DNA from: a virus
Lineage: Duplodnaviria > Heunggongvirae > Uroviricota > Caudoviricetes
IMG/VR virus record: IMGVR_UViG_2585427785_000006
Length of the DNA stretch: 7,081 nt
Strand: one strand, 5' to 3'
Of this stretch, positions 1 to 6,561 are shown in pieces. The translations under genes were made by a program, and so were the position numbers. The notes under the pieces were generated by a model. It worked only from the letters and a program-made list of their open reading frames with translations. It made no database searches and was not told the DNA's origin. The stretch's first letter is position 1. Every line of letters begins with the position of its first letter.

Positions 1-933
1 ATGGACAACGACAAAATTGATCAACACAGCGACGAAATTGAAGTTGAGAGCGAAGAAAAAGAGCGCGGCAAAAAAATAGAAATAGATGAAGACCGACTCC
101 CCTCCCGGGCGATGGCAATTCATGAGCATATCCGCCAGGATGGTGAAAAAGAGCTGGAACGCGACGCAATGGCGCTACTGTGGTCAGCCATTGCGGCGGG
201 TCTGTCGATGGGCGCTTCGTTACTGGCAAAAGGGATATTTCAAGTCGAACTGGAAGGTGTGCCGGGCAGCTTCTTGCTGGAGAATCTCGGTTATACCTTT
301 GGTTTTATTATCGTCATTATGGCCCGCCAGCAATTATTTACCGAAAATACCGTGACTGCGGTACTACCCGTCATGCAAAAACCGACAATGAGCAACGTCG
401 GCTTACTTATACGGTTATGGGGCGTCGTGCTGCTGGGTAATATTCTCGGGACAGGTATTGCGGCGTGGGCATTTGAATATATGCCTATCTTCAATGAAGA
501 AACTCGCGATGCATTTGTCAAAATCGGCATGGATGTGATGAAGAACACCCCCAGCGAGATGTTTGCCAACGCGATCATTTCCGGCTGGCTGATCGCCACT
601 ATGGTTTGGATGTTTCCTGCAGCGGGTGCGGCAAAGATTGTGGTGATTATATTGATGACCTGGCTTATTGCCCTGGGTGACACCACCCATATCGTGGTCG
701 GTTCTGTTGAAATCCTCTATCTGGTGTTTAACGGTACGCTGCACTGGAGCGATTTCATCTGGCCCTTCGCACTACCTACTTTAGCGGGGAACATCTGCGG
801 CGGCACCTTTATCTTCGCGTTAATGAGTCATGCACAGATTCGTAACGACATGAGCAATAAGCGTAAAGCAGAAGCACGCCAAAAAGCAGAACGTGCGGAA
901 AACATTAAGAAAAATTATAAAAACCCGGCATAA
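1..933 (+). CDS. yfdC: Inner membrane protein YfdC, formate/nitrite transporter (FNT) family
   Basis: Full 310-aa ORF from ATG at 1 to TAA at 931-933. The translation matches what I recall of E. coli K-12 YfdC and has a hydrophobic, multi-helix membrane profile. Its position directly upstream of tRNA-Arg argW and intS is the known K-12 arrangement. Confidence 0.9.
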   Translation: MDNDKIDQHSDEIEVESEEKERGKKIEIDEDRLPSRAMAIHEHIRQDGEKELERDAMALLWSAIAAGLSMGASLLAKGIFQVELEGVPGSFLLENLGYTFGFIIVIMARQQLFTENTVTAVLPVMQKPTMSNVGLLIRLWGVVLLGNILGTGIAAWAFEYMPIFNEETRDAFVKIGMDVMKNTPSEMFANAIISGWLIATMVWMFPAAGAAKIVVIILMTWLIALGDTTHIVVGSVEILYLVFNGTLHWSDFIWPFALPTLAGNICGGTFIFALMSHAQIRNDMSNKRKAEARQKAERAENIKKNYKNPA

Positions 934-1008: not shown

Positions 1009-1083
1009 GTCCTCTTAGTTAAATGGATATAACGAGCCCCTCCTAAGGGCTAATTGCAGGTTCGATTCCTGCAGGGGACACCA
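1009..1083 (+). tRNA. argW: tRNA-Arg, anticodon CCU (reads AGG)
   Basis: 75-nt sequence GTCCTCTTAGTT...GCAGGTTCGATTCCTGCAGGGGACACCA folds as a cloverleaf: 7-bp acceptor stem (GUCCUCU/AGGGGAC), T-arm GCAGG-TTCGATT-CCTGC, anticodon loop CUCCUAA with CCU, encoded 3' CCA. It matches E. coli argW as I recall it and sits in the expected yfdC/intS context. Confidence 0.92.
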
Positions 1084-1208: not shown

Positions 1209-1244
1209 GTGGATAAAATAATTTTACCCACCGGATTTTTACCC

Positions 1245-2402
1245 ATGCTCACCGTTAAGCAGATTGAAGCAGCAAAGCCGAAAGAAAAACCATACCGCCT
1301 ACTCGATGGTAATGGCCTGTACCTTTATGTCCCTGTGTCAGGGAAAAAGGTATGGCAGCTTCGCTACAAGATTGACGGTAAGGAGAAAATCCTGACCGTA
1401 GGAAAATATCCGCTAATGACTTTGCAGGAGGCAAGGGATAAGGCATGGACTGCGAGGAAAGACATCTCGGTTGGCATCGATCCGGTAAAGGCGAAAAAGG
1501 CTTCGTCTAACAACAATTCCTTTAGTGCGATTTACAAGGAATGGTACGAGCACAAGAAGCAAGTATGGTCAGTAGGGTATGCGACTGAACTTGCAAAAAT
1601 GTTTGATGACGACATTTTACCTATCATCGGCGGCCTTGAAATTCAGGATATTGAGCCGATGCAACTGCTGGAAGTAATCCGCAGATTTGAAGATCGCGGT
1701 GCAATGGAGAGAGCAAATAAAGCCCGCAGAAGATGCGGCGAGGTTTTCCGTTACGCTATTGTTACTGGTAGGGCTAAATATAACCCGGCACCTGACCTTG
1801 CTGACGCCATGAAGGGATACCGCAAGAAAAACTTCCCGTTTCTTCCTGCAGACCAGATCCCGGCATTTAACAAAGCACTGGCAACATTTTCAGGAAGCAT
1901 CGTATCGCTCATTGCGACCAAAGTTTTACGCTACACAGCCCTCAGAACAAAAGAGCTTCGTTCCATGCTATGGAAGAACGTCGATTTTGAAAACAGGATT
2001 ATCACCATCGACGCCAATGTGATGAAGGGACGCAAAATTCATGTGGTTCCTATGTCAGACCAGGTAGTTGAACTTCTCACTATGCTAAGCTCAATCACCA
2101 AACCAGTATCAGAGTTTGTTTTTGCCGGGCGCAACGATAAGAAGAAGCCAATTTGCGAGAACGCTGTACTGCTTGTGATCAAACAAATCGGCTATGAAGG
2201 TCTGGAAAGCGGTCACGGATTCAGGCATGAATTCAGCACGATTATGAACGAGCACGAATGGCCTGCCGACGCCATTGAAGTGCAACTTGCACATGCCAAC
2301 GGCGGATCTGTGCGCGGGATTTACAACCATGCACAGTATCTCGATAAGCGCAGAGAAATGATGCAGTGGTGGGCGGACTGGCTTGATGAAAAGGTAGAGT
2401 GA
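1245..2402 (+). CDS. intS: Tyrosine site-specific integrase, P4/CPS-53 (KpLE1) IntS type
   Basis: 385-aa ORF beginning MLTVKQIEAAKPKEKPYRLLDGNGLYLYV, matching E. coli K-12 IntS as I recall it. The C-terminal catalytic region carries tyrosine-recombinase hallmarks (LRTKELR, HGFRHEF, GSVRGIYNH with the nucleophile Tyr). The ORF track extends upstream to a GTG at 1209; I take ATG 1245 as the start by homology. Confidence 0.9.
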   Translation: MLTVKQIEAAKPKEKPYRLLDGNGLYLYVPVSGKKVWQLRYKIDGKEKILTVGKYPLMTLQEARDKAWTARKDISVGIDPVKAKKASSNNNSFSAIYKEWYEHKKQVWSVGYATELAKMFDDDILPIIGGLEIQDIEPMQLLEVIRRFEDRGAMERANKARRRCGEVFRYAIVTGRAKYNPAPDLADAMKGYRKKNFPFLPADQIPAFNKALATFSGSIVSLIATKVLRYTALRTKELRSMLWKNVDFENRIITIDANVMKGRKIHVVPMSDQVVELLTMLSSITKPVSEFVFAGRNDKKKPICENAVLLVIKQIGYEGLESGHGFRHEFSTIMNEHEWPADAIEVQLAHANGGSVRGIYNHAQYLDKRREMMQWWADWLDEKVE

Positions 2403-2622
2403 GCGACCTTAAACTATCGAATAGCACAAAGCCTAGCAATCCAGTACAAAGCTTTGTGTGTCTCAGTTTTGTCTAAGTGTTCTACTAAAACATAGTAAAA
2501 TCGGTAACGGCTGGAAATCATTCAATACTCGCACTATCGGAAGTTCACCAGCCAGCCGCGGTACGTTCTTACATACGATGTACCGCTGTTCTCTTTACGA
2601 TTTATAGCTGTACTGGTGAATT

Positions 2623-2948
2623 ATGAGCAATCTGAATCCATGCATGACGTGTGGTGCCTGTTGTGCATTTTCCGCGTCTCTTTTTACTGGGCAGAAGCTG
2701 ACGATGCTGGCGGAAAGGTTTCGGTCAGTCTCACTGAGCAAATATCTCCTTTTCATCGCTGTATGCGCGGCACCAATCAGAAAAATCCCCGATGTGGCGC
2801 TCTTGCCGGCCCCCCCCGGAGAAAACGCATATTGCTCTGTTTACAAAAACCGTCCACATGCAGGGAATTCGCAATGTCCGGCGAAAATAGCATCGTAAAT
2901 GAAGCATGTAATCGCGCACGGGAAAAATATGGATTTCCAAAAATCTGA
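2623..2948 (+). pseudogene. YkgJ-family (CxxCxxCC putative zinc/iron-chelating domain) protein gene, disrupted by three 1-nt frameshifts
   Basis: The ATG at 2623 is preceded by a GGTGA Shine-Dalgarno and encodes [16 protein letters not shown]. The reading frame must shift -1 at T4 (2668-2671), +1 at C8 (2810-2817) and -1 at A5 (2845-2849) to give a ~109-aa protein: ...[15 protein letters not shown]...[64 protein letters not shown]. The ORF-track entries 2623..2898 and 2616..2948 are the two frames of this one gene. Confidence 0.6.
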
Positions 2949-3060
2949 ATATTCTCCGCCGTGCAAAAATGCGAACAACATCACTTCACTAATCAACCTG
3001 ACATGGCATACTTAGCACGCTAACTATGATAACAAACTAATACCCTAAAACTCATGGTTC

Positions 3061-3087
3061 CGGGACTGGTCGTGGTCCCGTTTTTTT
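3061..3087 (+). terminator. Rho-independent terminator for the YkgJ-like gene
   Basis: 6-bp GC-rich stem CGGGAC/GTCCCG (3061-3066 / 3075-3080), 8-nt loop, then T7 (3081-3087). The reverse complement has no U-tract after the stem, so it is plus-strand specific. Its T-run ends at the stop codon of the convergent J-like ORF. Confidence 0.55.
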
Positions 3088-3089
3088 AT

Positions 3090-4400
3090 TCAGCCAGCAG
3101 GCCATCCAACAACGTAACTGCGGATCGCCTTCAGCTCTGTCAGCGCCTCAACCTCTGCTTTCATCTGCAACTGCCGTGTATTAATCTCCACCCCCTTCGC
3201 AAACATCGCCTGCTCTGTCGCATCCGACAGGGCTATGATGTCTGCCGCCGTCACCGGCACCACATTATTATCCCCGTCGGTCCAAGCAAAACCTTCCGGA
3301 AGACGGTTATTCTCTGCCATCAGGCGTGTCATGCTTATCCTGGACAACGTCTTCTTGCCGTAATCCCAGTTCCTTCCGTTGAATTCCATCATGTATTCCA
3401 TATTCTCCTGCACATCACGCCAGATATTAATCTCTTCCCTTTTCGCCGCTTTTGCCGCTTCCAGTACTGCTTCCGTGGCGACAAAGGCACTCACACTTCC
3501 GTACGTTCCTGCTGTCAGCCCAGACCACAATGCTTTTCCGTGTTCTGTATTATCCGTTTCCGTTGCAGTATACGGCAGCCATACCTGTTCCCCTTTTTCA
3601 TTCCCCGCGTCTTCAAACTGCCCCTCACAGTTTATCCCGCCATATTCGTTGCTGGCTGCATTTCGTACTGCAAGAATCTCTTTTCCCTTATGGTAGTTCA
3701 CCGTCATCTGCTGACCACCAAACTGCTCCGCATCCACCTGCATCCCCACAATGGCCGTGTTCGGGTAGCACTGTTTCACATCGATGATTTCGGTGTATGA
3801 CGACCACAGCGTTCTGTTCTGCAGCTGGTCCGTGGTGCTGTCCGCCGTCTCCCTGACCATCCGGATGTTAAAGGGGCGGGGAGGCAGATTATCCAGAATC
3901 ACCGAGGCCAGGAACTGTGAGGTGGTCTTGCCGTTAATGGTGACATCCTTTTCTGTCACCCAGTTACCGTTACGCTGTAACTGAATCAGCAGACGGACAG
4001 AGGACGGATTACGGTCACCCTTTGACGTGGTCTCCACCAGTGACTGCACCCCGAAGGTCACCCGCAGGCGGTCAATGTTCGCTGACGTAATGGTGCGTGT
4101 TACCGGTTTTGCCCTGGTCACTTCGACACCCAGTACAGTTTCAGAGCCGGAGGACTCAAAGCCTTCCGGTGGTGTCTGCTCCTGCTCCCCGGCACGCCAG
4201 ACCGCGGTCACACCGTGTATCACGGGATTACCGTCCGTGTCCGTCAGCGGGGTTTTGTTCACCAGAATACTCTGCAGGCTTTTCACCGGGCCTTCTATCG
4301 GTCCCTCACCAATCGCATCAATCACGCTCATCATCTGCGTGGATTTGAGATTGTCTTTCGCCTCACGAGGCGTGTGTGCCTTACCGCCACCTTTTCCCAT
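3090..4400 (-). CDS. J: Chimeric/truncated tail tip (host specificity) protein: J-like N-terminal ~243 aa fused to ~190 aa of unassigned sequence
   Basis: 436-aa ORF with a GGAAGG Shine-Dalgarno upstream of ATG 4400. The N-terminus MGKGGGKAHTPREAKDNLKSTQ...FESSGSETVLG...VKQCYPNTA...NYH tracks lambda gpJ residues 1 to ~243. Downstream of about nt 3670 the sequence no longer resembles lambda J, and the ORF stops at 436 aa where J-like proteins run to about 1100 aa. Confidence 0.75.
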   Translation of the reverse strand: MGKGGGKAHTPREAKDNLKSTQMMSVIDAIGEGPIEGPVKSLQSILVNKTPLTDTDGNPVIHGVTAVWRAGEQEQTPPEGFESSGSETVLGVEVTRAKPVTRTITSANIDRLRVTFGVQSLVETTSKGDRNPSSVRLLIQLQRNGNWVTEKDVTINGKTTSQFLASVILDNLPPRPFNIRMVRETADSTTDQLQNRTLWSSYTEIIDVKQCYPNTAIVGMQVDAEQFGGQQMTVNYHKGKEILAVRNAASNEYGGINCEGQFEDAGNEKGEQVWLPYTATETDNTEHGKALWSGLTAGTYGSVSAFVATEAVLEAAKAAKREEINIWRDVQENMEYMMEFNGRNWDYGKKTLSRISMTRLMAENNRLPEGFAWTDGDNNVVPVTAADIIALSDATEQAMFAKGVEINTRQLQMKAEVEALTELKAIRSYVVGWPAG

Positions 4401-4506
4401 ACAGCCTTCCCCTGAATAAATTAACCGCCACTTGCCATTCCGTACAGAAGTCGGATATCCTTCGCCCGAAAAGCATGAAACACATTTCTGCCATGCTAAA
4501 GAGAAA

Positions 4507-4539
4507 CCCCGGTATCAGCAGATACCGGGGTTTTCTTTC
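4507..4539. terminator. Perfect 10-bp hairpin (CCCCGGTATC-agca-GATACCGGGG) flanked by T-rich tracts on both strands; putative bidirectional intrinsic terminator
   Basis: Stem 4507-4516 / 4521-4530 with a 4-nt loop. Followed by TTTTCTTTC on the plus strand and by TTTCTCTTT on the minus strand. Lies in the non-lambda insert between I and J. Confidence 0.5.
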
Positions 4540-4657
4540 ATGCCCACCGATAATCCTGTTGGTTAAAACCGGTAATGGCATAAAAATTCTGAATATCTTC
4601 ACATTTTCACAAACTGACCGTGGCGCGTATAATTTTTCTGCGTTTATTTTTTTTTTG

Positions 4658-4666
4658 TGATATAAA
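4658..4666 (+). promoter_or_regulatory. Candidate extended -10 element (TGaTATAAA) preceded by a T10 tract (4647-4656)
   Basis: TG at 4658-4659 sits one nt upstream of TATAAA (4661-4666), with an AT-rich UP-like region upstream. A second TATAAT is at 4628-4633. No convincing -35 for either. A start here would give a short plus-strand transcript ending at the 4699-4737 terminator. Confidence 0.3.
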
Positions 4667-4698
4667 AATAATTTCTTTCACTTAATCTTTCTTAACTC

Positions 4699-4737
4699 TC
4701 CCGCAGTTCCTGTCCGCGATCACTGCGGGATTTTTTT
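4699..4737 (+). terminator. Strong plus-strand rho-independent terminator
   Basis: 9-bp stem TCCCGCAGT/ACTGCGGGA (4699-4707 / 4722-4730), 14-nt loop, then T7 (4731-4737). The reverse complement is followed by GAGTTAAG, which is not U-rich, so it is unidirectional. It ends 8 nt from the stop of the convergent I gene. Confidence 0.6.
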
Positions 4738-4744
4738 ATTCTTT

Positions 4745-5410
4745 TTACCCCTGCCGCCCGATAACCACGACCTTTCCGCCCCCGCCTTCATCACGGGTGC
4801 TGATGTCCTGGGATATACGGCGGGAGCCAACCAGCATTTCCCCGTAAGGCACCGGCATCGGGTTCCCCTGGGCAATCATGTTATCCAGCGAGGAAAAGTA
4901 CGTGTTCTGTCTGCCGTTATCCGTTGCGCGGTAATCCGGTGTTTTTGCCTTCGGGGCCAGCATCTGGGCCACACCGCCCAGTATCATGCTGGCACCCAGT
5001 GAAAACAGCATCGTGGTGGCAGAAAAACCACCGGCACTCAGGGCTGTACCCCATAACGCCATCGAGCCTCCGGCCGTGAAGAAAGAGCCCACGATGGCTG
5101 CCGCCCCCAACACAATCTGCAGTCCACCCTTTCCGGCCCCGGCCAGTCGCGGCACAATGTGGATGACCGTTCCCTCACCCAGCTGTTCGTGAAGGCGGGC
5201 GTACACCACCTCCGGTGCCGTGTCTTCACCGGCAATACGTATCTGGTACCAGCCTTCGTTCATCTGAAGGCGAAAGCCCGGCATCTGCATCGACAGGGCG
5301 CGAATGGCTTCCGCTGCCGTGTTCACATACAGGCTGAGGCGGCGGCCAAATCGTTGTAAATCCCCGTGGTTGCCCACGGTTGAGCCAGAGATAACAGCTT
5401 CCACCATCAT
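4745..5410 (-). CDS. I: Tail assembly protein I-like, N-terminally truncated (homology from about nt 5365 downward)
   Basis: From GDLQRFGRR onward the translation tracks lambda gpI, including the Gly/Ala-rich hydrophobic segment and C-terminal ...NTYFSSLDNM.AQGN...YGEM.VGSR..SQ.IST.DEGGGG.VVVIGR. The first ~15 codons of the ORF (MMVEAVISGSTVGNH) are out-of-frame FII sequence, so the natural I start is missing. Confidence 0.75.
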   Translation of the reverse strand: MMVEAVISGSTVGNHGDLQRFGRRLSLYVNTAAEAIRALSMQMPGFRLQMNEGWYQIRIAGEDTAPEVVYARLHEQLGEGTVIHIVPRLAGAGKGGLQIVLGAAAIVGSFFTAGGSMALWGTALSAGGFSATTMLFSLGASMILGGVAQMLAPKAKTPDYRATDNGRQNTYFSSLDNMIAQGNPMPVPYGEMLVGSRRISQDISTRDEGGGGKVVVIGRQG

Positions 5411-6144: not shown

Positions 6145-6561
6145 TTACGCCAGTTGTACGGACACGAACGCATCAGGATCAGCCAGCAGCATCAGCGGTG
6201 CTGACTGAATCATGGTGAACTCACGCGCCGGATCGCCGGTGGTCACCCAGTTTTTCGGGTAGCGGGCAGAGGCGTTAATACCTTCGCGCTGTGCGTCCGC
6301 ATCCTGAATGCAGCCATAACCAACACGGGCAGACTTCACCACATTCACCTCACGGATGTAGTCGCTGCCCATCGCATTCATGATGGCCCGCTGAAAGGGC
6401 AGTGTTTCCCAGCGCCCTTCCTGGTATGCGGATTCTTTCGGGAGATAGTAATTGGCATCCGCCCATTCAACGGCGGTCTGTGGCTCCGGCCTGAACAGTG
6501 AGCGAAGCCCGGCGCGGACAAAATGCCGCAGCCTGTTAACCTGACTGTTCGATATATTCAC
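6145..6561 (-). CDS. In-frame fusion ORF: terminase large subunit A residues 1-82 joined to the C-terminal ~56 residues of major capsid protein E
   Basis: GTG start at 6561 overlaps the Nu1 3' end by 26 nt, as in lambda. MNISNSQVNRLRHFVRAGLRSLFRPEPQTAVEWADANYYLPKESAYQEGRWETLPFQRAIMNAMGSDYIREVNVVKSARVGY is the gpA N-terminus. It is followed in frame by GCIQDADAQREGINASARYPKNWVTTGDPAREFTMIQSAPLMLLADPD.FVSVQLA, the gpE C-terminus. Junction at nt 6313-6318. Confidence 0.8.
   Translation of the reverse strand: MNISNSQVNRLRHFVRAGLRSLFRPEPQTAVEWADANYYLPKESAYQEGRWETLPFQRAIMNAMGSDYIREVNVVKSARVGYGCIQDADAQREGINASARYPKNWVTTGDPAREFTMIQSAPLMLLADPDAFVSVQLA

Follow-up and report, generated by a model that had tools for sequence, protein, structure and literature searches.

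What lies behind an open reading frame that begins as the tail tip protein J of phage lambda and then continues, in frame, into sequence foreign to J? The question is raised by a stretch of 7,081 nucleotides of viral DNA (Caudoviricetes), hereafter called the window, which corresponds to the last 7 kb of contig JOQI01000019.1 in the draft assembly of E. coli 4-203-08_S4_C2. A preliminary description of this DNA reported a 436-aa reading frame with a J-derived N-terminal part, followed by about 190 residues that it left unassigned. Three origins were suggested for these residues: the remnant of a deleted downstream gene, a divergent J C-terminus, or a domain of other function. The reading frame is present as claimed. 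In the interpretation favored here, to which a probability of roughly 0.9 is given, its C-terminal 199 residues derive from a neighboring DUF4376 gene and were fused to J by a deletion during the decay of a prophage. The chaperone role of the parental gene and the absence of function in the chimera, which belong to this interpretation, are conclusions that we infer. The coordinates of the features are collected in Table 1.

Table 1. Positions of the features discussed, in the window unless a related locus is named.
Feature	Position	Strand	Remarks
yfdC	1-933		
tRNA-Arg(CCU)	1009-1083		
Integrase gene intS	1209-2402		
ykgJ-like cysteine-cluster gene	2623..2952	+	broken by frameshifts; convergent with chimera
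Terminator-like hairpin and T-run	3061..3090	+	between convergent ykgJ and chimeric reading frame
Chimeric reading frame, 436 codons and stop	3090..4400	-	identical to WP_077763967.1 / KEL09224.1 (E. coli 4-203-08_S4_C2)
DUF4376-gene part, chimera codons 238-436	3093..3689	-	residues 4-202 of free-standing 202-aa protein
Pfam DUF4376 domain, chimera residues 315-422	3135..3458	-	conserved helical body with beta hairpins
Variable N-terminal domain of DUF4376 protein	3471..3689	-	model: three beta strands and first helix
Deletion junction, 3-bp microhomology	3689..3691	.	TAT on + strand, ATA on coding strand
J-derived part, chimera codons 1-237	3690..4400	-	tail tip protein N-terminal hub region
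FII::K deletion junction	5366-5368		3-bp CAC microhomology, out of frame
A::E in-frame fusion	6145-6561	-	junction 6316-6318, 3-bp ATA microhomology
ompC insertion	L009 11285-12418; L001 12454-13587		
Stf genes with shared end motif	L009 3470-4594; L006 1-810; L002 1976-2710; L014 1208-2647; L015 3380-4951		

Composition of the chimeric protein

The N-terminal half of the protein is readily recognized. Residues 1-237 align one-to-one with residues 1-237 of lambda J (TipJ; PDB 8iyk and 9e7m, E 1e-125) and contain the FNIII-A_GpJ domain of Pfam at residues 86-207. The DNA encoding them is 98.0% identical to J of an intact prophage in E. coli 2017.17.03CC (locus L009). Beyond residue 237, the alignment to the PDB structures loses its meaning, and the earlier claim that the C-terminal part is not J is borne out. 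In comparison with lambda J, about 890 residues are missing from the chimera, among them the central and C-terminal receptor-binding parts. It does not qualify as a full-length lambda J or TipJ, a group that includes the C-terminal receptor-binding region: the score against the NCBIfam profile lambda_TipJ is 505.9 bits, below the cut-off of 1950, and the match covers only positions 1-259 of the 1163 in the profile. A protein identical over all 436 aa is already catalogued in NCBI as "TipJ family phage tail tip protein" (WP_077763967.1), a misleading name, since nearly half of the protein is a different gene.

The departure from J, placed after residue ~243 in the preliminary description, is real but occurs six residues earlier, between H237 (3690-3692, J side) and K238 (3687-3689, foreign side). 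The boundary had been set too late because KGKEIL, which belongs to the incoming gene, resembles the (L/I)RGRI(L/I) of J by chance. With the boundary fixed at the level of codons, the foreign segment, itself correctly perceived, measures 199 aa rather than about 190 and occupies positions 3093-3689.

This segment can be assigned to a known family at several levels. It matches PF14301 (DUF4376) with 61.6 bits against a cut-off of 25 (E 1e-16), over profile positions 1-99 of 106, and thus belongs to the family by the gathering threshold. It also covers positions 8-193 of 194 of phrog_1141 ("tail fiber protein") in a collinear, full-length match (E 6e-77). In a collection of 5.8 billion proteins, free-standing 202-aa proteins of E. 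coli match the segment from end to end with 98% identity; the corresponding cluster, P0005, has 445 member sequences, and its protein begins MVDKGKEILAVRN. Free-standing members of P0005, P0007 and P0010 together span 98-80% identity across 99-100% of the segment, and full-length relatives down to ~45% identity occur in Salmonella, Citrobacter and Cronobacter. Among sequenced phages, the nearest relatives are ORF-191A/C/D/E of P-Eib (ECOR-9) and genes of phages PhiR5 and PhiR12, at 41-45% identity; the ORF-191 proteins, which belong to PHROG 1141, are more distant than the free-standing proteins (42-45% identical). All 26 family-invariant residues, which lie within the C-terminal half of the segment, are kept in the window copy, and the DUF4376 half of the chimera is undamaged and free of frameshifts.

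The alternatives proposed for the segment can be compared with these matches. A divergent J C-terminus is rejected, as J homology ends exactly at codon 237 and the rest is 98% identical to another gene. A domain of other function is likewise discarded. A lambda Stf, Tfa or b-region protein was also considered and dismissed: the chimera has no Stf domain match and no match to Caudo_TAP (PF02413) in Pfam at E<=1, and comparison of the DUF4376 family with lambda-type Tfa by hhalign gives a probability of 1%, that is, no detectable homology. A search of the full PDB with the DUF4376-family profile at E<=10 returned no match. A defense function is not supported by PADLOC, in which neither the chimera nor its C-terminal part matched any known anti-phage defense family. 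Domestication, in the sense of widespread retention of the DUF4376 gene, is contradicted by the occurrence of this variant in just 56 of 5,426 complete E. coli genomes. What was essentially right is the remnant of a deleted downstream gene, except that the segment comprises 199 of the 202 codons of a gene in the position of tfa, and not the tail of a gene. This makes the protein a routine deletion fusion, the outcome by which, according to the preliminary description, its own reading would be refuted.

The deletion junction

The free-standing proteins (P0005; WP_249824191.1 from strain 2017.17.03CC) share with the window the neighbor on the outer side, ykgJ. They differ from the chimera in that its 237 J codons replace the gene's own start and first three codons, and the window lacks the upstream stf and lom that normally precede the DUF4376 gene. 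A separate DUF4376 gene with its own start directly after stf is consequently not found in the window, whereas it is present in L009, L016, L014, L015, L002 and L006.

The most informative comparison is provided by L009, in which the prophage is intact and J has 1,128 aa. The order there is potB, ykgJ (plus strand), DUF4376, stf, lom, J, a 344-bp spacer, I, K and L. Window positions 2623-3691 correspond to L009 2381-3454 with 96.4% identity, and positions 3689-5368 to L009 8001-9679 with 98.0% identity, while the 4,546 bp of L009 between the aligned blocks are absent from the window. With this stretch, the fiber gene, lom and 79% of J have been lost. The coding-strand sequences are TAC CAT ATC in J, GTG GAT AAG GGA in the DUF4376 gene and TAC CAT AAG GGA in the window. 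They place the break within an ATA common to both genes (CAT|ATC in J, GAT|AAG in the DUF4376 gene).

Such a junction is the signature of a microhomology-mediated illegitimate deletion. A single illegitimate-recombination event of ~4.5 kb at the 3-bp microhomology joined J to the DUF4376 gene. J was lost from codon 238 to codon 1128, lom and stf disappeared, and the DUF4376 gene was shortened by its first three codons. The frame was kept by chance (237 + 199 = 436). The chimera is fully explained by a routine deletion that joins two known families.

Decay of the surrounding prophage

The minus strand of the window carries remnants of a lambda-type late operon, arranged from left to right as the 436-aa reading frame, I, a truncated FII, FI, an A::E fusion and Nu1. 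The ykgJ-like gene and the DUF4376 part form one block from the right end of the prophage (window 2623-3691), and comparison with the 109-aa L009 protein shows two or more frameshifts in ykgJ. Two further deletions are present. The A::E fusion combines ~82 N-terminal residues of terminase A with the last 56 of capsid protein E, and 6,030 bp are missing there relative to phage PhiR30_1; the FII::K deletion also removes the natural start of gene I. These two deletions and the frameshifted ykgJ are the marks of a dead prophage remnant at argW.

Damage is also seen in other strains, where different deletions in argW prophages have produced a Nu1::tail protein fusion (L010) and an intS truncated against a terminase gene (L011). 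The preliminary description had raised the recurrence of the C-terminal domain on other N-termini as a point to check, and such cases exist: in other assemblies, the DUF4376 gene is fused to capsid gene E (P0006), to L (P0086) and to FII (P0088), and many "partial" DUF4376 copies occur in the protein collection. Because the DUF4376 gene comes last among the late-strand genes of the prophage, it turns up fused to E, L and FII; these recurrent fusions are products of decay and not a designed architecture.

Several further observations concern this region. In the metagenome contigs L019 (~1390) and L018 (~4937), FII has been joined by another deletion to the last 52 DUF4376 codons (P0088). The FII breakpoint there and that of the window are no more than 1 nt apart, and the lineage concerned is diverged by 2.6%; the near-identical breakpoints could be due to coincidence, to a hot spot or to shared history. 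The ykgJ gene is annotated as frameshifted also in the finished genome of E. coli 55989 (L016), and the ykgJ-DUF4376 pair is found at the prophage end at several integration sites (potB, tRNA-Ser and argW/intS). In the argW prophage family (window 1209-3090; L010, L011), transcription of intS points away from the tRNA, and intS adjoins the tail-fiber end of an inverted late operon, unlike the lambda prophage map; the interval between intS and ykgJ corresponds to window positions 2403-2622.

The parental gene as a putative fiber chaperone

In five independent references, namely L009, L016 (E. coli 55989), L014 (P-EibA, orf-191A), L015 (the plaque-forming phage PhiR5_1) and L002, the gene order is J-lom-stf-DUF4376. 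Among lambdoid relatives, the DUF4376 gene always follows stf, in the slot occupied by tfa in lambda. Lambda Tfa and Mu U (PF02413) resemble the DUF4376 proteins in this slot, right after stf, and in size. The two are alike in position and presumed role; they are analogous and not detectably homologous.

In other phages, experiments have established DUF4376 proteins encoded just after fiber genes as tail-fiber chaperones. In the Alteromonas phage V22, a functional gp26 fiber requires gp27 (DUF4376, 195 aa), which is not part of the mature fiber and is not needed for binding after the fiber has folded (PMC7289586). In CJIE1 prophages of Campylobacter, the gene after the H-fiber, which encodes a DUF4376 domain, likewise has to be co-expressed (PMC7882524). 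A5 gp9 and V22 gp27 have been modeled as trimeric caps with a helical body and a beta-hairpin tentacle, in which three beta strands extend the sheet of the fiber head (PMC10579305). Chaperones of this type are defined by a C-terminal DUF4376 domain, a length of ~195-240 aa and a position directly after a fiber gene (PMC10579305, PMC7289586), and all of these are found in the parental gene of the intact relatives. The literature search gave no experiment on the lambdoid ORF-191 clade and nothing usable on ORF-191 or eib; the DUF4376 papers found concern other phages.

The intact lambdoid relatives share with the V22 gp27 type a C-terminal PF14301 domain, a length of ~200 aa and the position after the fiber gene, and the window differs in that its client fiber gene is gone. 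The predicted fold points in the same direction. An AlphaFold model of the window segment as a monomer (pLDDT 92.9) has three N-terminal strands (5-13, 19-29 and 35-42), a helical body and two hairpins (99-110 and 135-145), and the structures closest to it are those of other viral DUF4376 proteins, ~200 aa in length. The predicted N-terminal strands, helical body and hairpin are consistent with the published description of the V22 gp27 type, whose chaperones come from other phage lineages and fiber types than the lambdoid clade. The resemblance to intramolecular chaperone domains that has been published for V22 and A5 was not recovered in the fold searches, which showed no fold similarity to the intramolecular chaperone domains of K1F endosialidase and T5 pb1.

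The pattern of variation offers an additional indication. Between L014 and L015, identity is 99% in the N-terminal part of Stf and 25% in its C-terminal part, compared with 34% in the N-terminal and 98% in the C-terminal domain of the DUF4376 protein; between L009 and L002, the Stf C-terminal part is 33%, the DUF4376-protein N-domain 59% and its C-domain 92% identical. Identity of the N-domain thus tracks the Stf C-terminus, and that of the C-domain does not, in a small sample of six loci with four distinct types. This covariation suggests that the N-domain travels with the fiber tip and that the C-domain is generic. A variable N-terminus combined with a conserved C-terminus is what would be expected of a fiber-specific chaperone with a common trimerizing core. 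In the intact phages, the DUF4376 protein probably serves the Stf side tail fiber as an intermolecular chaperone or a transient cap. Docking on the cognate fiber tip would fall to its variable N-terminal beta domain, and the trimerizing core would be built from its conserved helical DUF4376 domain.

Another possibility, considered unlikely, is that the DUF4376 protein is the distal receptor-binding piece of a two-part side fiber, like gp38 of T2-type phages, in which case the C-terminus of the chimera would be what is left of a receptor-binding protein. Such proteins do bear the name "tail fiber protein" in PHROG and in several GenBank records, and the upstream Stf can be short (244-374 aa). 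The variable N-terminal domain might serve as a determinant of specificity, but this most variable part changes together with the fiber C-terminus and not independently. Conservation is highest in the helical DUF4376 domain, which does not look like an exposed surface for receptor binding, and the adhesin role also disagrees with the behavior of V22 gp27, which separates from the mature fiber and is dispensable once the fiber is folded (PMC7289586).

Two observations on the associated genes can be added. The Stf proteins encoded upstream of DUF4376 genes contain collagen-like GP(Q/A)GPxG repeats and very different distal domains, and they all end in the motif G(T/S)W...LF(Q/M)R(I/A)x, at which the conserved part of the DUF4376 protein may dock. 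In locus L013, from a P2/Mu-like prophage, a protein with a Caudo_TAP-type N-terminus and a DUF4376 C-terminus (P0084, 6001-6579) is encoded directly after a fiber gene, in the Tfa slot of a Mu/P2-type invertible cassette, a placement that also speaks for the chaperone role; opposite to it lie an alternative Caudo_TAP gene and an alternative fiber end, and the locus adjoins a Gin-like invertase.

Activity of the chimera

The chimera is a routine deletion product that most likely has no function. It would be a passive by-product of prophage decay with no role in tail assembly, because the client fiber has been deleted and J lacks everything past residue 237; the undamaged DUF4376 half may retain residual activity. 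Pairwise dN/dS values against relatives (0.16-0.31) reflect the history of the DUF4376 family and not selection on the chimera, and they carry no information on the time since fusion, as just six differences separate the window from the nearest copy. In lambdoid prophages, expression of such genes requires the late promoter, which is not part of the window.

A functional, selected chimera is very improbable. According to this explanation, the J hub fragment and a stable, trimer-forming chaperone domain would act together as a dominant-negative tail-tip decoy: built into the tail tips of lambdoid phages, superinfecting or co-resident, it would block them and thus represent interference by a prophage remnant. 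Both halves are undamaged and joined in frame, but an in-frame outcome is a 1-in-3 chance, and out-of-frame products would be listed as "partial" DUF4376 proteins, many of which exist. The DUF4376 half is predicted to fold well, and the contig is recorded in three samples; the exact protein, however, forms a two-member cluster from one contig family only, and no place in any of the 5,426 complete genomes of E. coli covers at least 80% of a 1.9-kb junction-spanning query (window 2900-4800). The visibly decaying neighbors, the lack of a PADLOC match and the failure to find a sigma-70-like site on the coding strand ahead of the reading frame also weigh against a decoy. Nothing but the intact reading frame points there.

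That the junction is an artefact of assembly or sequencing instead of a real deletion is barely credible: the window does lie at a contig end of a draft assembly and several ykgJ frameshifts could be read errors, but the junction is at least 3.3 kb from either window end, it has a clean 3-bp microhomology with flanks 96-98% identical on both sides, the contig recurs in the three samples, ykgJ is frameshifted in the finished 55989 genome as well, and comparable fusions of late genes to DUF4376 occur in independent assemblies.

Other features of the late operon

Genes I and J nearly abut in lambda. In the window, they are separated by an AT-rich spacer of 344 bp (4401-4744), which is 98% conserved in L009. 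The spacer contains a perfect 13-bp hairpin (4504-4516 / 4521-4533). On the plus strand, antisense to the late genes, it has a strong promoter-like site (TTCACA-16-TATAAT, 4606-4633) with a terminator-like hairpin and T-run downstream (4713-4739). Its fold z-score is -3.97, no known RNA family was found in it with Rfam, and it could encode a small RNA of ~100 nt. In the related intact prophage, a full-length ompC porin gene (WP_000738903.1) lies between tail genes L and M and appears to be a porin moron within the tail operon.

Significance

Apart from its correct annotation, the importance of the chimera is small. What is of some use is the comparison of the parental genes: in lambdoid coliphages, the slot of tfa behind stf is filled by the 202-aa DUF4376 or ORF-191 gene. 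The putative chaperone role would provide a testable function for a family that is labelled "unknown" or "tail fiber protein" in the prophages of E. coli and Salmonella.
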